A DNA stretch of 57,909 bases. It comes from a virus. A program made the position numbers and the translations under genes. The notes under the pieces are model-generated. The model was not told where the DNA came from and made no database searches. It saw nothing but the letters and a program-made list of their open reading frames with translations. The stretch is from IMG/VR virus record IMGVR_UViG_3300045988_069295, positions 1-57,909 of that record; one strand, given 5' to 3'. Shown piece by piece: positions 1,199-49,702 of the stretch. How positions within the stretch are numbered: position 1 is the first letter of the stretch; the number at the start of each line of letters is the position of its first letter.

Positions 1199-1858
1199 AT
1201 GGAGCAGGAACACAAGCCGAGAACATCAATGATTCTTCTGTTGGAACACGTCCATGCGATGGACGAGCTGACAGACGAGGAATTTGGAGCATTCATCCGC
1301 AACTACGCGCAGTATGTTGAGACTGGATTTGAGCCAGCATACGACAACGACCGTGCTATGCGGATGCTCTGGAAAGTTGTTAAAGCGTTCGATGATACGA
1401 ATGCGCAGAAAAGACAGGAGCGAATCGAGAAAAACAGACGGAGTGCAAATAAGCGTTGGAACGATGAAAAATGCAAATGCATACAAACGCATACTAATGA
1501 TGCAAATGCATACGCTGGTATGCAAATGAATGCAAACGATGCCTTATCTATATCTGATTCTGTATCTGAATCTGATAAAAAAGAAAAATGTGAAAAGAAA
1601 AATACCAAAGAAGTCAAACGCTTCAAAGCACCGACTGTCGAGCAAGCCAGAGAATACTTTGCCGATAAGGGCTACATGGAATCGGAAGCAGAGCGGTTTG
1701 TTGACCACTTCACGGCAAATGGCTGGAAGGTCGGAAAATCGCCTATGAAGGACTGGAAAGCTGCTGCACGGAACTGGATGCGTAACGCGAAGGGCTGGAA
1801 CGGTGGCTATCAGCAGACAATGGCTGAATTGCCTGACGAGGGAGACTTTCTGCGGTGA
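1199..1858 (+). CDS. putative replisome organizer / replication protein
   Basis: Overlaps the start of the DnaB-like helicase. The Trp/Lys-rich C-terminus (FVDHFTANGWKVGKSPMKDWKAAARNWMRN) resembles phage organizer proteins. ATG 1199 is preceded by AAGAGGA. Confidence 0.5.
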   Translation: MEQEHKPRTSMILLLEHVHAMDELTDEEFGAFIRNYAQYVETGFEPAYDNDRAMRMLWKVVKAFDDTNAQKRQERIEKNRRSANKRWNDEKCKCIQTHTNDANAYAGMQMNANDALSISDSVSESDKKEKCEKKNTKEVKRFKAPTVEQAREYFADKGYMESEAERFVDHFTANGWKVGKSPMKDWKAAARNWMRNAKGWNGGYQQTMAELPDEGDFLR

Positions 1859-3677: not shown

Positions 3678-3922
3678 TCTCCGCTGAAATCTCCAATCAA
3701 CAAACGTATCAGAAAGCATGGAATGGTATCAGGTAGTAAAACTACCCTCTGCGACTATTCCGTGCTTTTTTCTCTTGTTATTTATCGAGAGAAAACGGCA
3801 AGGTCTGATTTTTGGGCAGAAACCGTCTCGATCGAGTGGTGTTTGGGCTGATATGGCCACGACTATCAGCGTGATGCGTTTGCATGCAAATGGATGCACA
3901 TGATGCGTCCGCATCCAATCTT

Positions 3923-3989
3923 CCCCCCTTTCTTCCCCCTCTTTCCCCTACAACCCCTATTACCCCCTATAATCCCCCTAACTCCCCCC
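3923..3989. repeat. Array of seven C4-C6 tracts spaced about 10 nt apart (G-tracts on the - strand)
   Basis: C runs start at 3923, 3935, 3945, 3954, 3963, 3974 and 3984. A 9-bp hairpin CTCAAACAA/TTGTTTGAG follows at 3988..4011. Confidence 0.8.
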
Positions 3990-4299
3990 TCAAACAAATA
4001 AATTGTTTGAGGCCCCCACGCCGAAATGGTGAGACAACTGCAACAACCGGAAACGACAACCAGATGTTTTGCAAAGGTTCTTTCCCCCTACAACCCTCTA
4101 TCTCCAAAAGCTATACCGTTAGCCAGCAGAGCAGACCGTAGGCGGCATCTACCGTCAGGTTCTATTGGCTGAATATAGGCATATCGTCCATCTGACCTCT
4201 ACGTTGCGTCACCCTCTATCGTCCGGCGCACCGCGCCGACCGGGTGACCTTCAACGGTAACGGCATCTAGCCTGCATAGGGCAGTAGCATCTAACCCGG

Positions 4300-38705: not shown

Positions 38706-39344
38706 ATGGGCAAGACTAATTTTCGCCGCATGATGATGCTCCGTGACCACGACAAAAACCGTGAACCGGAACGTGACCGCCTTGAGGAAGAGCGTGACCG
38801 CAGGGAGCGTGAGCTGGAACGCCGTCTGCGTAAGCTGGAAGATGGCAACGACCGTTATCCCTACTATCCGCAGGAGGAGAACCGTTATATCGACCCCTAC
38901 CCTATCCCCCGCTACCCTGACATAGAGAATGGGCGCAGAATGCCGCAAATCGGCTTCTCGCAGAACGGAGACTGGGATAAACGGTCTAATCAGTATGAAC
39001 GTGGCGGAGCAGATAGCCGTTCCATCAAGATGCCACGCCAGCACCTCACCCATGATGAAGCGGAAGAATGGTGCGACAGCATGGTGAACGCTGACGGCAC
39101 AAAGGGCTGTCACTGGACGCTGGAACAGACGCAGGACGTTGCCAAACAGCGCAATATCACCTGTGACCCAAATGATTTCTGGGCTGTCATGAACATGATG
39201 TACTCGGATTATTGCCAGGTCGCAAAGCGTCAGTCTGTTGACACTCCGGGCTTCTACGCCGACATGGCAAAGGCGTTCCTTGAGGACGCAGATGCCACAG
39301 ATGGCAAGGCATATCTCTACTGGGATTGCATTGCTGATAAGTAA
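38706..39344 (+). CDS. cargo operon protein 6: Arg/Glu-rich N-terminus with a Cys-containing C-terminal domain
   Basis: ...EEWCDSMVNADGTKGCHW...MNMMYSDYCQVAK...YWDCIADK; AAGGAGG RBS. Confidence 0.65.
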   Translation: MGKTNFRRMMMLRDHDKNREPERDRLEEERDRRERELERRLRKLEDGNDRYPYYPQEENRYIDPYPIPRYPDIENGRRMPQIGFSQNGDWDKRSNQYERGGADSRSIKMPRQHLTHDEAEEWCDSMVNADGTKGCHWTLEQTQDVAKQRNITCDPNDFWAVMNMMYSDYCQVAKRQSVDTPGFYADMAKAFLEDADATDGKAYLYWDCIADK

Positions 39345-39348
39345 AGAA

Positions 39349-39394
39349 GAACCCCTGTGTAGTTTTTACCGACTACGCAGGGGTTCTTTTATTT
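39349..39394. terminator. bidirectional rho-independent terminator between convergent operons
   Basis: 15-bp stem GAACCCCTGTGTAGT / ACTACGCAGGGGTTC followed by TTTTATTT. Confidence 0.85.
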
Positions 39395-39946
39395 CCAAAG
39401 TACAGATTTGGCTTTTATGTCAAATAAGTCTTGTGGATGGAACACAAGGCTTTTATCAAGCTCAACTATGCCAACGATGGAGAATTTGCCGGGGACTTCT
39501 CGCTCGATTTTTGCCTTTGCTTCTTCTTTGTTGCTTGCAAACAAGACGAACGGAGTTTGGAAGTGTCTGCATTTTTCGTCATCATCGTACTGGATTTTGA
39601 CCCAATAAAAGTTTTCACCCACTACTTCTTTCGGTGTTAAGTGTTTTTTGACACTTGAGACATCGTAAGTGCAATACCCGATACACTGTGGGTTTCCGTA
39701 TTTCTCCATAAAATTGTCGTTCCCAATACGAGTTGCCAAAACCATGTGAACGTCTTTCCAACCAACACGGTCATCATTGACCGGTTTATCGTCCATAACA
39801 ATATCATCAGGGGCTATCACTTTCTTGCCAACCGCCAAATTCCAATTATTTGCAATATAATGTGTCATCTGATACCAGTTGTCAAATGTTTTTACTTCTT
39901 TCATGGCATCTTCCAAAGAGCCACGATGAGGTCTATAAACAATCAT
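39389..39946 (-). CDS. hypothetical protein (last gene of the par operon, AT-rich)
   Basis: 185-aa ORF; no family recognised. Confidence 0.6.
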   Translation of the reverse strand: MIVYRPHRGSLEDAMKEVKTFDNWYQMTHYIANNWNLAVGKKVIAPDDIVMDDKPVNDDRVGWKDVHMVLATRIGNDNFMEKYGNPQCIGYCTYDVSSVKKHLTPKEVVGENFYWVKIQYDDDEKCRHFQTPFVLFASNKEEAKAKIEREVPGKFSIVGIVELDKSLVFHPQDLFDIKAKSVLWK

Positions 39947-39949
39947 ACG

Positions 39950-40522
39950 TCAATCCTCCAAGAAATCCTCCAACTCAATCTTCCCGTCTGCCGCTGCAAC
40001 GGCTAGGGCGTAAACGAACTGTCCAATCGTCATTCCGTGCCGCCTTGCTTCACGGTTGATATACTTGCGCTCCTCCTCGCTCATAAGGATGGTAATGCGC
40101 TTTGAACGCTTGCCATCGCCACTTGCAACGCCCTGATGCGATTCCGGCATCGGGATTTTTTTCTTTGTCAAGCCAGCTTCGGCTAGTGCACCGTGAACAT
40201 CGCCTTGTTCGATAAGACGTTGAACTTCTTTCGCCTGCTTCAACTTTTTCGGCTTACTTTCGCTTACTACGGCATTGTTTGACTGTGTTTCGCTGTCTTT
40301 GGCTTGCTTCGGCTTAATACTGCTTAACTGCGCTTCATTAGGCTGTGCACGGCTGTATGTGGCTTCACTGTGCTTAATCTGTACTTGCTCGGCTTCGTTC
40401 GGCTTTGCTTGGCTTACTTCTTCTTCCTTTGGCTCACTTCGGCTTAATGTCTGTTCCGAAAAAATAGGCTGGAAATCAAACCCGCCAAGCAGACCCGTTG
40501 ATTTTTTGCTGGTTGATTTCAT
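39950..40522 (-). CDS. ribbon-helix-helix protein with a long disordered Lys/Glu/Ser/Gln-rich N-terminus (candidate centromere-binding ParG/ParR analogue)
   Basis: C-terminus RITILMSEEERKYINREARRHGMTIGQFVYALAV is an RHH pattern. Start ATG 40522 overlaps the upstream stop (ATGA). Confidence 0.6.
   Translation of the reverse strand: MKSTSKKSTGLLGGFDFQPIFSEQTLSRSEPKEEEVSQAKPNEAEQVQIKHSEATYSRAQPNEAQLSSIKPKQAKDSETQSNNAVVSESKPKKLKQAKEVQRLIEQGDVHGALAEAGLTKKKIPMPESHQGVASGDGKRSKRITILMSEEERKYINREARRHGMTIGQFVYALAVAAADGKIELEDFLED
40251..40450. repeat. Twenty consecutive 10-bp units with consensus GGCTTnnnnn, no indels
   Basis: 8 units start with GGCTT and 16 of 20 have GCT at unit positions 2-4. The array lies inside the region coding for the disordered tail of the RHH protein. 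Confidence 0.85.
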
Positions 40523-40731
40523 TCCTCTACAGCCTCCATTCGTGCGCCACAATTTGGGCAAAAATTGACTGTCCACATGGAGTTTTTTCTAAATACGGCC
40601 ATGCAGTTTGAACAACCAATGCCAGCTACATTCACCTGCGTCCCGCCATTATCTAAGTCGGTATAACTATAATTTGCTTGTTCCCAATGTGCAATTGGGC
40701 GTACAACATGTTCGGTTTTCTTTTTAGCCAT
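40519..40731 (-). CDS. 70-aa Zn-ribbon protein between parA and the RHH gene
   Basis: CSNC...CPNC; GGAGGGGG RBS; start overlaps the end of parA. Confidence 0.6.
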   Translation of the reverse strand: MAKKKTEHVVRPIAHWEQANYSYTDLDNGGTQVNVAGIGCSNCMAVFRKNSMWTVNFCPNCGARMEAVEE

Positions 40732-41497
40732 TTTTATCCCCCTCCACAATCATCTTCGCCAACGCCTTGAAATCCTCTGCGCTGGTACTCTTTGCCGTGT
40801 CGCCACTAAACAGGCTGTGACGCTCTGCCTGCGCCTTACGAACGCCCATAGACGGTCTAATCTTCACGTCCAACAGAGTTGTCCCCATGCTCTGTGCAAT
40901 CACAGGAAGCTGCTCCACAACCTCTTTGGACAGGTTCTCACGGCTCTTGTACTGGTTCAGAAGCAGACCTTCAATTTTCAATGTTGGATTGAAGTATCTG
41001 CGAACATCTCCGATGGTCTGCGAAAGCTGGCTCAAACCAGCTACAGAATATCGGTCAGGTGTCATCGGAACAATGGCACCATTCGATGCGATCAACGCAT
41101 TTACAAGCATAAGACCAAGCTGCGGGGGAGTGTCCAGCACAATGTAATCGTACTGCCCGGACACGCTTTCAAGGGCTTCTCGCAGCCGGAAGTTCTTGCC
41201 CATGTCTCGGACAAGCTGCTCGTCAATGTCCTTCAATGCGCTGTCGGACGGAAGAATGTCACCAGCTTCGCAGTGCTGGATTCCTTCCTCTACCGTACCC
41301 TGCCGGGTCATCACATCAAACAGGGTACATACGTCCTCTGTCTTTGCGCCGTAGGTGTCCGTTGCATTGCACTGGGCATCGCAGTCCACCAGCAAAACTT
41401 TCTTGCCAAGCAACTGTAACGCACCAGCCAGACAGGTGCTTGTGGTGGTCTTTCCTGTGCCGCCCTTCTGGTTGGCGACAGCTACGATTTTTGCCAT
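40724..41497 (-). CDS. parA: ParA-family partition ATPase (short, type Ib-like)
   Basis: MAKIVAVANQKGGTGKTTT deviant Walker A; VLLVDCDAQ; 257 aa. Confidence 0.9.
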   Translation of the reverse strand: MAKIVAVANQKGGTGKTTTSTCLAGALQLLGKKVLLVDCDAQCNATDTYGAKTEDVCTLFDVMTRQGTVEEGIQHCEAGDILPSDSALKDIDEQLVRDMGKNFRLREALESVSGQYDYIVLDTPPQLGLMLVNALIASNGAIVPMTPDRYSVAGLSQLSQTIGDVRRYFNPTLKIEGLLLNQYKSRENLSKEVVEQLPVIAQSMGTTLLDVKIRPSMGVRKAQAERHSLFSGDTAKSTSAEDFKALAKMIVEGDKNG

Positions 41498-41512: not shown

Positions 41513-41779
41513 TTATTCGTATATCGGCATTTCTGCCCACGCTACCACTCTTGCAATAAAGCAAGCGTCCGAAGAAATGTTCAATCTCTGAAACGATGTG
41601 CTTACAAATTCGCCTTTTTCAATAAACGCTGCGACTGTGTTTGTTGCCGTTATAGAGTCATCTTTCAAATAGGCCGTTTTTACCGAACACAAGAACCGAC
41701 CTTTCGTTCTTTCAATGATTTCTGGTGTTGGCATCCCATCATCTTTAACGGAATACCACACAATTTTCTGCTTCTTCAT
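41513..41779 (-). CDS. DUF551-like protein
   Basis: KIVWYSVKDDGMPTPE...VVAWAEMPIYE; AGGAG-type RBS. Confidence 0.5.
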   Translation of the reverse strand: MKKQKIVWYSVKDDGMPTPEIIERTKGRFLCSVKTAYLKDDSITATNTVAAFIEKGEFVSTSFQRLNISSDACFIARVVAWAEMPIYE

Positions 41780-41839: not shown

Positions 41840-42934
41840 CTACTTTTGCATTGCGTCAATCTCATAAAAAGCTGGAAGATACTCTTCAATCGCACCGTCT
41901 TTCTTCAAGCTGCCAATCAGATACCGCTTCGGGTGGTCAGGCCAAGGGTCACGGCTGATTGAAAGAATGTCTGCACACGCAGCCTTTACGATGTCATAGA
42001 CCGCATCTCTCCGCTTTGGTAGCTTAATAGATGGATGCTCTTCCATCAGCTTTACCTCAACAACCTTTGCAACCTCGATGCACTCTTGGACAGATAGAGC
42101 ATCACACACAGACCAATCGTACCCTTCGTATCCGCTTGTGCGGGTCTTTCTGGCGGCTTTTTTGATTTCCGGCTTGGAATTAGCCGTCTCACAATCAACC
42201 TCGCTAGAATCGGCATCTATGACGGGCTGCTTGGATTTGTACCCGAATCGAAACTCGACCGCTACGACCTTTCGCCCTGTGCAAATCTTCTCAAAGTCAA
42301 CGACAATGTCTGAAACATTGCTGATCTCTTCCACTGCTGGTTCAAGAACTCTGCGGCGTAAAGCCCGAAAGTCGTCATAACTTGCATCGTTTGCCCCCAA
42401 GTGGTCACGCAGCTGCTTCAAACCAATCTTGTTCGATGTTAGAGAGCGATTCATCCAATCTCGAATCATGCTGTACATCAGAATAGATGCTTGCTGCTTC
42501 ATCCCAATCGTATAGCGCAGACGGTATTTGACGTAGCCGCTTCTTGCAATGTCGAAAAACACAGGCCGCAAGTCAGGATTACAGTTGATTGAAACGTCAT
42601 AGGACAAGGATTCTCGATTGAACTTGACCTCTGCCTTTGTGAACAGCGGATACATCACATATTCCGTTCCGTCTGCGTTCAACGGCACCGAAACCACGTT
42701 GCCTAAGAAATGCTTGACCTGCGACTTCAAGTTCTTTGAATTAAGCTTCAAATCCAGCAGTTTGCAATATTCAGCCAGCGTAAACGACACGTTAGAGCTT
42801 TCGGGGTCTCTCGGATTGATACGGCTCAGATAGACCTCAAGCAATCGAAGCTCGCCTGCTGTGTAGTCCGTAAACTTCGCCCAAACCAATGCCTTGCTCT
42901 TTTCGACAAGGTTGTTTCCTGTCAATTCTGGCAT
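41840..42934 (-). CDS. repB: RepB / Rep_3-family plasmid replication initiator
   Basis: N-terminal NNLVEKSKALVWAKFTDYTAGELRLLEVYLSRI... pattern, two winged-helix-like halves, and iterons immediately upstream. Confidence 0.8.
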   Translation of the reverse strand: MPELTGNNLVEKSKALVWAKFTDYTAGELRLLEVYLSRINPRDPESSNVSFTLAEYCKLLDLKLNSKNLKSQVKHFLGNVVSVPLNADGTEYVMYPLFTKAEVKFNRESLSYDVSINCNPDLRPVFFDIARSGYVKYRLRYTIGMKQQASILMYSMIRDWMNRSLTSNKIGLKQLRDHLGANDASYDDFRALRRRVLEPAVEEISNVSDIVVDFEKICTGRKVVAVEFRFGYKSKQPVIDADSSEVDCETANSKPEIKKAARKTRTSGYEGYDWSVCDALSVQECIEVAKVVEVKLMEEHPSIKLPKRRDAVYDIVKAACADILSISRDPWPDHPKRYLIGSLKKDGAIEEYLPAFYEIDAMQK

Positions 42935-42976
42935 TGCATCACCTCATTTCTTCTACCCTATTATACCACTGCATCG

Positions 42977-43126
42977 TGTACACGTCAATGATTCTGTACA
43001 CAATTATTTTTTCAACAATCAACTTCCACATTCTGTACACGATACTCCACTTTATGTACACGATACACTCCACTTCTTGTACACGTTCCTCCACTTTATG
43101 TACACAATGCTCCACTTTTTGTACAC
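42977..43126. repeat. oriV iterons: five tandem units of about 21 bp (CTCCACTTTaTGTACAC) plus two partial copies. Inverted copies sit at 43306 and 43480 and an 11-bp AT-rich tandem at 43145..43166
   Basis: TGTACAC core at 42977, 42995, 43034, 43055, 43078, 43099 and 43120. AACAAGAGATA occurs twice. An 11-bp inverted repeat TTTTCAACAAT/ATTGTTGAAAA lies near 43200..43245. Confidence 0.85.
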
Positions 43127-43538
43127 GTTCTTACTATATATATAAACAAGAGATAAACAAGAGATAAATAATCATCATCAAATAGTGACGACGATACATT
43201 TTCAACAATTTTTTCTCTTCAACGGGCAGATTGTTGAAAACGACAACTTTTTTTGCTGAATAAGAAACGTCCATCAAGTCCTATAACCTACCTGATGGTT
43301 TTATCGTGTACAGAAAATGGAGTGCAATCACACCAATAAGGGACGAATTGACAAGTCACTCTTTGATGAACGAAAATTTTACGAGAGATCGTTAATTACA
43401 CCCCGCAAAAATCCATCATTTACGACTCTATAGGGGACAAAATGACAACCCAAAACTATATTTATAACACAGGTCTATTGTGTACAAAAAGTGGAACACG
43501 TCCCCCTGTATACCGTAAAAACTTCGATAATTCGACAA

Positions 43539-48873: not shown

Positions 48874-49025
48874 ACATGAACGAAATGTACGATTGTTCCG
48901 GTTGTTTTGATCGCTTCGGTGGCGTGGTTGAGCCGCCCGATGACTACTACTTCGCGCCCAGGACGGACGAAGAGCCTGAATGGCAGCGGCCAGATGAAGC
49001 GGATTCCATGTGCTGGGGAGATTGA
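48870..49025 (+). CDS. hypothetical 51-aa protein
   Basis: ATGA overlap with the upstream gene. Confidence 0.4.
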   Translation: MNMNEMYDCSGCFDRFGGVVEPPDDYYFAPRTDEEPEWQRPDEADSMCWGD

Positions 49026-49093
49026 TTTTCGTACAGCCAAGTTAAGCCGAAGTAATAACAATGAAGCCTAATGAAGCCGAAGAAAGGAAACGT

Positions 49094-49702
49094 ATGGACA
49101 ACAGCAAAATTCATGAAGCCTTGATGGCTGTTCAGTCAGAGTTGAAAGCCCCGAAGGGGCAGATGAACACATTTGGCGGTTACAAGTATCGCTCTTGTGA
49201 GGACATTTTGGAAGCAGTCAAACCAATTTTGAAAAAACACGGTTTGCTTCTTACCCTTTCTGATGAACCTAAAGTGTTAGAGGGGTGGCATTACATCGAA
49301 GCGACCGCAAAGGTGGAAACTCTGGATGGTGGATGCGTAACGGTTACTGCTTACGCAAGAGAACCGGAGCAAAAAACAAAGATGGATGCAGCGCAGGTGA
49401 CTGGAACGTCTAGTAGCTACGCTAGAAAGTACGCTCTGAACGGTTTGTTCTGCATTGACGATACGAAGGACGCTGACACGGACGAGTACCAGAAGCAAAC
49501 CACAAGCAAAGCAAACAAGCCTGCGCAGAAGCAAACGGAAGCAAAAACCATCCCCCCATGCGCTTGCTGCGGAAAGCAGTTGCAGCCTATTCAGTACAAC
49601 AACCGCACAGTCACTCCACTGGAAACTGCAAGAAGCACGAAGAAACGCTTTGGGCGTGTCCTGTGTTGGGACTGCGCCCAGAAACAGCCGAAGGAGGGCT
49701 AA
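49094..49702 (+). CDS. erf: ERF-family single-strand annealing protein with a C-terminal Zn ribbon
   Basis: ...FGGYKYRSCEDILEAVKPILKKHGLLL...SSSYARKYALNGLFCIDD. Confidence 0.75.
   Translation: MDNSKIHEALMAVQSELKAPKGQMNTFGGYKYRSCEDILEAVKPILKKHGLLLTLSDEPKVLEGWHYIEATAKVETLDGGCVTVTAYAREPEQKTKMDAAQVTGTSSSYARKYALNGLFCIDDTKDADTDEYQKQTTSKANKPAQKQTEAKTIPPCACCGKQLQPIQYNNRTVTPLETARSTKKRFGRVLCWDCAQKQPKEG

Follow-up and report, generated by a model that had tools for sequence, protein, structure and literature searches.

A 10-nt-phased repeat array inside a ribbon-helix-helix protein gene as a candidate partition site of human-gut phage-plasmids

A gap-free array of 20 ten-nucleotide units, 200 bases in all, lies inside the coding sequence of a ribbon-helix-helix (RHH) protein gene in a Rep_3/iteron phage-plasmid of the human gut, and it is under purifying selection at the DNA level and is not the echo of a peptide repeat. 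The window referred to throughout is the whole stretch of DNA that was analysed, 57,909 nucleotides of IMG/VR virus record IMGVR_UViG_3300045988_069295, and its relevant features are collected in Table 1. With moderate confidence, we consider the array to be a cis-acting DNA element that lies within coding sequence and most likely serves as the partition site (centromere) of a type Ib ParA/RHH system. It is probably bound by the very RHH protein that is encoded around it, for which it is a candidate binding site. The selection signature of period 10 inside an open reading frame (ORF) is a robust and unusual observation even if the function should differ.

Table 1. Positions of the array, its host gene and the neighbouring features in the window.
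Feature	Position	Strand	Basis
Proposed partition site (centromere), 20 uninterrupted 10-nt units	40251..40450	-	Periodicity and phase-following constraint
RHH gene, 190-aa candidate centromere-binding protein (CBP)	39950..40522	-	ORF, Pfam, AF2, Foldseek, family alignment
RHH DNA-binding domain, aa 138-190, beta-strand KRITILM	39950..40111	-	Pfam, alignment, AF2, Foldseek
Conserved N-terminal peptide MKSTSKKSTGLLGGFDF	40472..40522	-	Kept in all clades, unlike the linker
Small ORF (70 aa) for a zinc-ribbon protein, overlapping parA on one side and the RHH gene on the other	40519..40731	-	ORF, domain search
parA, 257-aa Walker/deviant-Walker ParA ATPase	40724..41497	-	Pfam AAA_31 5e-52 and CbiA; PHROG 164 1.5e-57
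rep, Rep_3-family replication initiator, first gene of the rep-par operon	41840..42934	-	Pfam Rep3_N 2.7e-17, Rep3_C 1.2e-15
Iterons of 21-23 bp, TGTACAC core; replication origin/operon control region	42970..43130	.	Repeat search
xAGCC mini-array, 10-nt spacing, leader of an erf-like gene; relation to the main array doubtful	49034..49078	+	Relatives' loci

Read in 10-nt blocks from position 40251, the array agreed closely with the original prediction made from the letters of the window. Eight blocks start with exact GGCTT (0.28 expected per 200 nt), 16 of the 20 carry GCT at unit positions 2-4, and no indel interrupts the register, all as claimed. The further claim that every block lies within two mismatches of GGCTT applies to 19 of the 20, the exception being block 14 (40381, GTACT) with three mismatches. 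The consensus is GGCTTwnTTy on the + strand and nnAAGCCrAA on the coding strand, the latter being strongly A/G-rich. Base-match autocorrelation reached 0.51, 0.51, 0.49 and 0.54 at lags 10, 20, 30 and 40, against 0.18-0.35 at other lags, and no peak was seen at lag 3 (0.25). The Fourier power of period 10 at 40251 was 4.30, the highest among all 200-nt segments of the window (median 0.69; 99.9th percentile 3.78; maximum of 2000 shuffles 2.84), and the predicted periodicity is confirmed. The strongest Fourier peak of the array is at period 5 (11.8 versus 4.3 at period 10), because AA/TT steps come about twice per unit. Intrinsic curvature was rejected as the role of the array, as bends spaced by half a helical turn would tend to offset one another.

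The array encodes amino acids 25-91 of the RHH protein, a linker predicted to be disordered. The unit of an ordinary coding tandem repeat is a multiple of 3 nt; here it is 10 nt, and the signal at lag 30 is no stronger than that at lags 10 and 20. Keeping the amino-acid sequence and redrawing the codons from the element's own usage in 5000 draws lowered the lag-10 value from 0.553 to 0.323 ± 0.035 (z 6.6, 0/5000) and the lag-20 value to 0.325 (z 6.1), while lag 30 stayed at 0.437. Shuffling the order of the codons gave a lag-10 value of 0.297 ± 0.032 versus the 0.553 observed.

The diversity among 77 unique relatives with 91-94% nucleotide identity followed the same period. Within the array, the 10-nt phase had a significant effect on site entropy (F 4.8, permutation p < 0.0005) and the codon phase did not (F 2.4, p 0.1). 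In the remainder of the RHH gene, period 3 gave F 102 and period 10 gave F 0.56. As the sequences are related, such comparisons can be read only as the rate of one site class relative to another on the same tree. At third codon positions, H was 0.146 at the core unit positions (n=34) versus 0.475 outside the array (n=124, p 2e-6), a three-fold lower variability. The rate of change at unit position 10 is close to neutral even where it falls on a first or second codon position, with H of 0.425 versus 0.055 elsewhere (p 5e-6). Each relative carries AAGCC in register 6-11 times and essentially never out of register. The search for compensated frameshifts within the array found none, and the 23 BLAST alignments scored as gapped reflected codon substitutions outside it. 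An antisense ORF (40275-40568) was dismissed as the source of the constraint, as it would impose period 3 and not period 10. The DNA is thus constrained independently of a peptide that is itself tolerant or dispensable, the pattern expected of an intragenic cis-acting site.

The 10-nt register is retained, with different motifs, in four or more diverged clades between which the linker peptides do not align. The P0137 clade has the unit GAATACAGCG in five lineages (lag-10 0.41-0.48, z 4.9-7.4) and the P0132 clade the unit AGwGGAAGTC (z 5.5); P0136 carries AGAAT at gene nt 100, 160, 200, 220 and 250, and P0140 shows a weak 10-nt signal (z 3.2). Together with the synonymous resampling and the phase of the polymorphism, this bears out the proposal that the 10-nt period belongs to the DNA, and the DNA periodicity is indeed more conserved than the protein, the comparison that the prediction had put forward as a check. 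Strict phasing at about one helical turn holds for the 10-nt array of the window and fails as a universal rule: the sister clade P0126 has the 9-nt unit GAwTSAGCA, and exact helical phasing would therefore not be required. A 9-nt unit would also satisfy the multiple-of-3 rule for coding repeats. The RHH protein occurs in lengths of 150, 160, 170, 180 and 190 aa, which correspond to three-unit steps in the array. Array length is not critical, as some relatives are down to about 8 units.

One relative, P0139 (98 aa), has no linker at all; just past the end of its gene stand four 10-nt AAGTA units in a row (0/20000 shuffles), an extragenic arrangement known from one 567-nt, low-coverage contig (L174). 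This copy is untranslated and lies after a terminator. Judged by eye over about six clades, the motif core loosely tracks the beta-strand of the RHH domain. AGC-type cores accompany R-[IV]-[TS]-[IV] strands, namely KRITILM with AAGCCGAA in the window, PRITIIM with CAGCGGAA in P0137 and RVSV with CAGCAGAAT in P0126/P0136, and AAGT cores accompany R-M-x-I-A strands (P0132, P0139). The element family is very common in human-gut viromes, with >800 protein clusters at 90% identity and >500 IMG/VR contigs. Searches of IMG/VR with P0132, P0136 and P0137 and of GTDB genomes and PLSDB with the RHH protein returned no matches, and INPHARED contained matches in just two records, both of unannotated phages from human faeces.

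In other mobile elements, tandem repeats are known to give rise to disordered protein regions, and a neutral by-product of this kind would explain part of the data: a 10-nt micro- or minisatellite would have expanded by slippage in a tolerant linker, where only 30-nt changes survive the reading frame. The lengths from 150 to 190 aa fit active expansion and contraction in three-unit steps, and the linker, for which disorder is predicted, defies alignment between clades and is missing in P0139. Like those repeats, the array encodes a low-complexity, disordered segment of variable length; their units are normally divisible by three, with constraint at the peptide level or none, whereas the present array has a unit of 10 nt and is constrained at the level of the DNA unit. 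We nevertheless regard a neutral origin as improbable. The units are only ~50% identical to one another and the array is therefore old, yet its core has stayed fixed, in contrast to the neutral drift at position 10. Slippage-driven turnover can hold a core/spacer pattern in a functionless array for some time, but the reduced variability of core synonymous sites relative to other synonymous sites, as well as the recurrence of the register with different motifs across clades and outside the coding region in L174, argue against it, and 10-nt units would be too short for efficient homologous gene conversion.

Constraint on synonymous sites would also fit selection on the transcript, and the A/G-rich coding strand could be seen as a purine-rich periodic mRNA motif for translation pacing, an RNA-binding protein or an antisense RNA. 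This explanation is very improbable, as the array RNA is less structured than its shuffles (z +1.49; 187/200 shuffles fold at least as well), has no Rfam match and stands in an operon where no RNA-binding protein is evident. The 10-nt (or 9-nt) register and the untranslated copy behind the terminator in L174 fit recognition of duplex DNA better.

The genomic context then points to the partition machinery. The gene order Rep3-ParA-RHH is kept in all relatives, with parA and the RHH gene adjacent or overlapping, and the RHH gene is translationally coupled to the Walker ParA. The zinc-ribbon ORF is absent in L086 and L089 and has a 138-aa ORF in its place in L087. In the parA product, the AAA_31 and CbiA matches cover aa 3-226, no extra N-terminal DNA-binding (HTH) domain was found, and PHROG 164 is a ParA-like partition protein. 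The best promoter-like site runs from 42988 to 42960 on the minus strand upstream of rep, where the iterons overlap or adjoin it, and the rep-par genes appear to form one operon driven from this region. Upstream of parA, where the gaps measure 15 nt and 60 nt and leave no intergenic space, we found neither a repeat array nor a promoter-like site. Apart from the rep iterons, no other repeat array was found in the rep-par module. The iterons are a distinct repeat family, unrelated in sequence to the array and 2.5 kb from it. A role of the array as replication origin or Rep_3 iterons was rejected, given that separate 21-23-bp iterons exist and the array units are 10 bp.

The RHH protein consists of the conserved N-terminal peptide, the repeat-encoded linker, two helices and the C-terminal RHH domain. 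The ParA gene and the C-terminal location of the RHH domain agree with the gene context described in the original prediction. Its Pfam match to a NikA-like RHH family (E 1.4e-5, 25.5 bits) just misses the gathering cutoff of 27. A role at oriT, as this match might suggest, was rejected in view of the constant coupling to parA. In the AF2 model, aa 15-89 have pLDDT < 50, and helices 149-161 and 166-178, plus the strand region, have pLDDT 87-95. The top 15 Foldseek matches in the PDB are all RHH proteins, ParG included, although with E >= 1, weak values that arise because the RHH domain is short. By analogy with the tails of known CBPs, the N-terminal peptide is a candidate ParA-contacting and ParA-activating tail.

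A canonical type Ib system has a small Walker ParA without N-terminal HTH, a small RHH-fold CBP just downstream of parA, and a centromere of multiple short repeats that lies upstream of parA and doubles as operator. The present module has the first (257 aa), the second (with a Pfam score just under the gathering cutoff) and the third (20 units of 10 bp, with equivalent arrays in relatives). It departs from the scheme in position, as the array is found inside the CBP gene and not upstream of parA over the par promoter/operator. The centromere reading is plausible on this context, that is, the type Ib gene order, a lone array, the 9-11-bp periods of RHH centromeres and the loose co-variation of motif and beta-strand. 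While the array demonstrably lies in the coding sequence, we infer from the context that the RHH protein is its reader, that its binding has a function in partition and that the N-terminal peptide acts as an activator of ParA.

DNA-level constraint as such says only that something reads the DNA, and the reader might serve another purpose. The array could be an intragenic operator or roadblock by which the RHH protein, or else Rep, the zinc-ribbon protein or some host factor, adjusts expression of the RHH gene and of orf185 downstream of it. It could also be a silencing or incompatibility site, and partition would then be located elsewhere, e.g. at the iterons. RHH proteins are often repressors, and the structural matches include CopG, Arc and antitoxins. 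We consider this explanation unlikely. A protein bound within a transcribed gene would impede RNA polymerase, and the rep-par genes are seemingly one operon from the iteron region, both of which suit such a role, but 20 tandem sites far exceed the needs of an operator and are typical of centromeres. Moreover, coupling of the RHH gene to parA is invariable, its product keeps an N-terminal tail like those of partition CBPs, and no other array is available for partition. Operator and centromere usually coincide in type Ib and type II systems, so this explanation overlaps with the centromere reading.

As a second site related to the array, the prediction had suggested a mini-array upstream of erf. 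Its coordinates are correct (CAGCC at 49034; AAGCC at 49044, 49064 and 49074), and conservation is somewhat higher at its core positions (H 0.126 versus 0.268). Of 80 Erf-anchored loci, 42 have the mini-array, one keeps a single unit and 37 lack it, the last group having a different upstream gene. It is also unchanged in contig 3300045988_046417 (L083/L103), which carries the 9-nt type of RHH protein and array. Missing from so many relatives and showing no co-variation with the RHH type, the mini-array did not hold up as a second site.

If the array is a centromere, RHH dimers would bind it one per 10-bp unit with the beta-ribbon in the major groove, and would coat ~80-200 bp cooperatively, as in the pCXC100 ParB or ParG/ParR-type complexes. 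The long disordered linker would hold the N-terminal peptides off the DNA, where they could engage nucleoid-bound ParA-ATP and stimulate its ATPase, leading to segregation of the phage-plasmid prophage copies. The same DNA is also translated; since the unit length is not divisible by 3, successive units fall into different frames, and every three of them yield a 10-aa pseudo-repeat. A disordered linker would tolerate almost any sequence and leave the DNA free to be shaped by the binding requirement, and the array would change in length only by three-unit (30 nt) steps.

Individual traits of this arrangement are found in known systems, the closest precedents being the pCXC100 parS, the parS inside parT and the pSK41 origin inside rep; we found no match for the phrase "intragenic centromere" in the literature. 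The RHH-type ParB of pCXC100 (Leifsonia xyli) binds nine direct repeats of 9 bp that adjoin without spacers and are weakly conserved, and its footprint has a 9-bp period; the units are non-palindromic and occupied cooperatively by one dimer each (PMC3074162). The present module shares with it the pairing of a Walker ParA with an RHH CBP and uninterrupted, short, degenerate direct repeats of similar period (10 bp here, 9 in one clade). The parS of pCXC100, by contrast, occupies intergenic DNA upstream of parA and acts as operator as well; here, 20 units lie inside the CBP coding sequence. The RHH domain is C-terminal in the present protein, and no sequence homology to the pCXC100 system was detected. 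A parH array has also been described for the TP228 ParF/ParG/parH system (PMC3130281).

Like TP228 ParG and the ParR proteins of R1, pSK41 and pB171, the RHH protein would be a flexible-tailed CBP that coats a short-repeat array (~8-11-bp spacing) and stimulates an NTPase. The ParR systems (R1, pSK41, pB171; parC) use actin-like ParM and not ParA, and the TP228 parH and the R1/pSK41/pB171 parC centromeres are intergenic, overlapping promoters. A partition site within the gene of the protein that binds it occurs in B. subtilis, where a parS lies in spo0J. In SCP2, the parS lies inside parT, as shown by ChIP-seq and synonymous mutation (PMC12260392). The array would resemble both if the RHH protein is its binder; those sites are single 16-18-bp palindromes read by HTH ParB-like proteins that spread or slide, with no 200-bp direct-repeat array forming a whole protein segment and no non-triplet periodicity. 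The pSK41 RepA_N origin has four Rep boxes in the centre of the rep gene, encoding a linker of dispensable peptide sequence (PMC5703833), the same dual-use logic as proposed for the array. That site serves replication initiation by a winged-HTH protein through four boxes, without a 10-nt register read in three frames, and the origin of the present element is separate (Rep_3 iterons).

The furthest-reaching form of the centromere reading, which we put forward tentatively, is a self-encoding centromere, that is, a type Ib partition site made of the codons for the flexible linker of its own CBP. If true, the units would be read in all three frames with the DNA binding code overriding the protein code, and the repeat number would set the length of both centromere and tether in quantised three-unit steps. 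A protein sitting on its own ORF could couple assembly of the partition complex to autoregulation by acting as a transcriptional roadblock, and motif changes between clades would offer a built-in route to new incompatibility or specificity groups, with protein and site in one gene.

More generally, if the array is a centromere, ParA/RHH partition sites can escape searches that cover intergenic DNA alone. The element would be a clean natural case of a non-triplet DNA-binding code dominating a protein code, measurable from population data alone, and the same period analysis could be used as a screen for hidden cis-elements in other coding regions. For this very common family of gut phage-plasmids, the array would provide a handle on how repeat number, spacing (10 versus 9 bp) and tether length act in segrosome function, and on the origin of partition specificities.

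Read in 10-nt blocks, the array comprises 20 units without gaps, eight of which start with exact GGCTT and 16 of which carry GCT at unit positions 2-4. This bears out the gap-free array of the original prediction, although its claim that every block lies within two mismatches of GGCTT holds for only 19 of the 20, block 14 (40381, GTACT) having three. The column profile over the 20 units is G14 G17 C19 T18 T15 w n T15 T14 y, or nnAAGCCrAA on the coding strand. Autocorrelation reached ~0.5 at lags 10, 20, 30 and 40 versus 0.18-0.35 at other lags, with no lag-3 signal, and the period-10 Fourier power was the maximum of the whole window, above all 2000 shuffles. Shuffling the codon order gave a lag-10 value of 0.297 ± 0.032, compared with 0.553 observed.

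An intergenic stretch of C-tracts (CCCCCT/CCCCTA) at ~9-11-nt spacing, followed by the inverted repeat caaacaaataaattgtttg, ranks second in the window by period-10 Fourier power; it may serve packaging, lytic replication as an origin, or regulation. TRF also detected tandem repeats with periods of 10 nt (CAAATGCATA) and ~29 nt, followed by ATCTGTATCTGA repeats.

Coordinates of the array, the rep-par module and other features in the window
Feature	Coordinates	Strand	Remarks
rep	41840-42934	-	Rep3_N and Rep3_C
orf88	41513-41779	-	module member between rep and parA
parA	40724-41497	-	AAA_31 5e-52; PHROG ParA-like 1.5e-57
zinc-ribbon ORF, 70 aa	40519-40731	-	
RHH gene, 190 aa	39950-40522	-	carries array
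N-terminal peptide of RHH protein	40472-40522		aa 1-17
array	40251-40450		20 units
orf185	39389-39946	-	last ORF in list of module
terminator hairpin	39347-39388		bidirectional; ends module
iterons	42970-43130		21-23 bp, TGTACAC core, five to seven copies; upstream of rep
iterons with following AT-rich stretch and repeats	42970-43168		
top sigma-70-like promoter match of region	42988 to 42960		upstream of rep, overlapped by iterons
DUF7841 gene	38706-39344	+	convergent to par module, downstream of RHH gene
mini-array	49034-49078		upstream of erf-like gene
region upstream of erf-like gene	48900-49100		two alternative forms
C-tract run	3880-4000		also about 4080-4100
tandem repeats	1470-1575		

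The 10-nt period had been taken to argue for a DNA-level function, and three independent tests (synonymous resampling, polymorphism and deeper relatives) agree that the periodicity is a property of the DNA and not an echo of a peptide repeat. When the 66-codon peptide was held fixed and each codon was redrawn according to the element's own usage, the lag-10 value fell from 0.553 to 0.323 ± 0.035 (z 6.6; 0/5000) and the lag-20 value to 0.325 (z 6.1), while lag-30, the true peptide repeat, remained at 0.437; therefore, the 10-nt register resides largely in codon choice.

For polymorphism, we used 80 IMG/VR loci out of more than 500 relatives, giving 77 unique genes of 91-94% nucleotide identity, all encoding 190 aa. 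Read as relative rates of site classes on one tree rather than as absolute values, site entropies outside the array followed the usual codon pattern (roughly 0.06-0.13, 0.00-0.05 and 0.40-0.53 at codon positions 1, 2 and 3; F 102 for period 3, 0.56 for period 10). Inside the array the codon positions flattened to 0.13, 0.16 and 0.23 (F 2.4, p 0.1), and entropy was patterned by the 10-nt phase (F 4.8, p < 0.0005), from H 0.48 at unit position 10 to H 0.06-0.10 at positions 2, 3, 5 and 9. Third codon positions had H 0.146 at core unit positions versus 0.475 elsewhere (Mann-Whitney p 2e-6), and first and second codon positions had H 0.425 on unit position 10 versus 0.055 elsewhere (p 5e-6). Thus, constraint on synonymous sites coincides with the conserved positions of the DNA unit, and amino-acid-changing sites are near-neutral where the unit is free. 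The register was kept in 77/77 relatives (lag-10 0.53-0.62), with AAGCC occurring 6-11 times per gene in register and essentially never out of it.

The family is narrow, with no more than 20 clusters at 50% identity in an exhaustive profile-free search; GTDB representative genomes and PLSDB gave no matches, and the only matching records were from uncultured human-faecal phages. The gene order Rep_3 - ParA - (optional small ORF) - RHH gene was found in every relative with enough flanking DNA. The deeper relatives have the N-terminal peptide and the RHH in common, and their linkers are variable in length and unalignable as peptides, yet the linker DNA is still periodic. The P0137 clade (five lineages, 58-66% amino acid identity) has the unit GAATACAGCG (lag-10 0.41-0.48, z 4.9-7.4), the P0132 clade has AGwGGAAGTC (lag-10 0.44, z 5.5), P0136 has AGAAT at gene nt 100, 160, 200, 220 and 250, a 20-nt unit in 10-nt register (lag-20 z 3.6), and P0140 gives a weak 10-nt signal (z 3.2). 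In the sister clade P0126 (loci L081-L085, e.g. L081:3580-3790), ~20 units of 9 nt, GAwTSAGCA, with the peptide x-Q-x, replace the 10-nt array (lag-9 0.45, lag-10 0.20), a one-base difference in period between clades of otherwise syntenic phage-plasmids; codon choice there tilts to the motif (CAG:CAA 14:3 vs 17:18 in neighbouring genes, p 0.03). The sole linker-less relative, P0139 (98 aa), has four successive 10-nt units starting with AAGTA/AAGTT (L174:483-520; 0/20000 shuffles) in untranslated DNA directly past the gene's terminator; on the few data of one 567-nt low-coverage contig, they appear to be the extragenic equivalent of the arrays found inside the gene in other relatives.

Within the window's own family, RHH proteins of 150, 160, 170, 180 and 190 aa (including P0149-P0161, P0199 and P0224) correspond to arrays of ~8 to 20 units, changing by three DNA units per step. 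In addition, rare 164- and 173-aa proteins have lost DNA in lengths other than multiples of 10 nt. Slippage or recombination evidently takes place, as the variation in copy number shows. That the array is a neutral slippage product within a tolerant linker is nonetheless quite improbable, for such an origin leaves unexplained why an old array, ~50% diverged, keeps a fixed core and constrained synonymous sites, and why the 10-nt register recurs with different motifs and beyond the ORF. Most likely, some factor reads this DNA at a 10-bp period (9 bp in one clade).

The obvious candidate for this reader is the RHH protein of the same gene, which would bind its own coding sequence. It has four parts: an N-terminal peptide (MKSTSKKSTGLLGGFDF), a low-confidence segment, two short helices and a C-terminal strand-helix-helix. 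AlphaFold2 gave pLDDT <50 for aa 15-89 and 87-95 for the strand-helix-helix. The C-terminal part matched the NikA-like RHH family of Pfam (E 1.4e-5) with a score of 25.5 bits, below the cutoff of 27, and the best 15 Foldseek PDB matches were RHH proteins only (including AtaR, KacA, CopG, Arc, CdbA, TacA, ParG and NikA), every E-value being at least 1 because the RHH domain has only ~40 residues. The most conserved part outside the RHH is the N-terminal MKxTSKKxSGLLGGLDF, whose K-K...G-L-x-G-x-D pattern may resemble that of the N-terminal peptides with which chromosomal ParB/Spo0J proteins stimulate ParA; in this system the peptide is joined to an RHH, not an HTH ParB.

The window is a nearly complete phage-plasmid of ~58 kb: structural genes occupy the + strand, and the replication/partition module the minus strand. 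Neighbouring ORFs near parA and the RHH gene share a few bases, and the remaining gaps in the operon are 3-60 nt. After the iterons come an AT-rich segment and 2.5 copies of ATAAACAAGAG, the whole being the probable plasmid origin and control region of the rep-par operon. A role of the array as replication origin was rejected, as the iterons sit elsewhere. No repeat arrays besides the iterons and the 10-nt array were found in the rep-par module. The DUF7841 gene (window, L086, L087, L089, L171-L173) directly adjoins the module in several clades, with 1-3 extra genes between in others, and is followed by conserved 125-aa and ~290-aa ORFs.

The predicted mini-array is correctly located and phased, its three phased AAGCC copies being improbable by chance; it is the window's only phased AAGCC cluster beside the main array, with which it has the 12-mer TTAAGCCGAAGT in common. 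A further link to the main array is not supported: it is absent in 37/80 Erf-anchored relatives, whose upstream gene differs, and reduced to a single unit in one more; its motif positions undergo mutation; and it is unchanged in contig 3300045988_046417 (L083/L103), where both the RHH and the array belong to the 9-nt CAGCAGAAT type. Close relatives (L090-L169) carry either an AAGCC-containing leader or a different gene abutting erf, a mosaic junction.

In both ParA (type Ib) and ParM (type II) systems, RHH centromere-binding proteins (CBPs) coat short-repeat arrays. The proposed working of the array resembles that of such centromeres, for example pCXC100 parS, ParR/parC and TP228 parH; in pCXC100, ParB occupies nine weakly conserved 9-bp direct repeats that follow each other without spacers, with one dimer on each (PMC3074162). 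Type Ib features present here are the kind of ParA, an adjacent RHH CBP and a repeat array; the type Ib centromere upstream of parA, overlapping its promoter, was looked for and not found, the module having neither a promoter-like site nor intergenic room before parA. Partition and replication sites inside the cognate gene are already known. A single palindromic parS lies inside spo0J. Another lies inside parT of SCP2 (PMC12260392), and four Rep boxes of the pSK41 RepA_N origin lie centrally in rep, encoding a dispensable linker (PMC5703833). In the searchable literature, we did not find an RHH-type array of many units whose period is not a multiple of 3 and which forms the part of its own CBP gene that encodes the linker.

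The motif core appears to co-vary with the RHH beta-strand, although these few data are suggestive only: R-[IV]-[TS]-[IV] strands (window, P0137, P0126, P0136) pair with AGC-type cores (AAGCCGAA, CAGCGGAA, CAGCAGAAT), and R-M-x-I-A strands (P0132, P0139) with AAGT cores. An RNA element is highly improbable, since the array RNA has less structure than its shuffled versions (z +1.49) and Rfam gave no match. A binding array with a regulatory rather than a partition role is unlikely, and it overlaps the partition reading because type Ib and type II systems often combine the two roles. Given the precedent of RHH CBPs, the lack of another array in the module and of a promoter-like site or intergenic space ahead of parA, and the joint change of motif and beta-strand, we lean towards a type Ib partition site within the stretch of the CBP gene that encodes the linker. 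In this proposal, a ParA-activating tail would be provided by the N-terminal peptide. Since 10 is not a multiple of 3, three units are translated, one in each frame, into a 10-aa pseudo-repeat. The disorder and tolerance of the linker segment would explain how a DNA code can dominate there.
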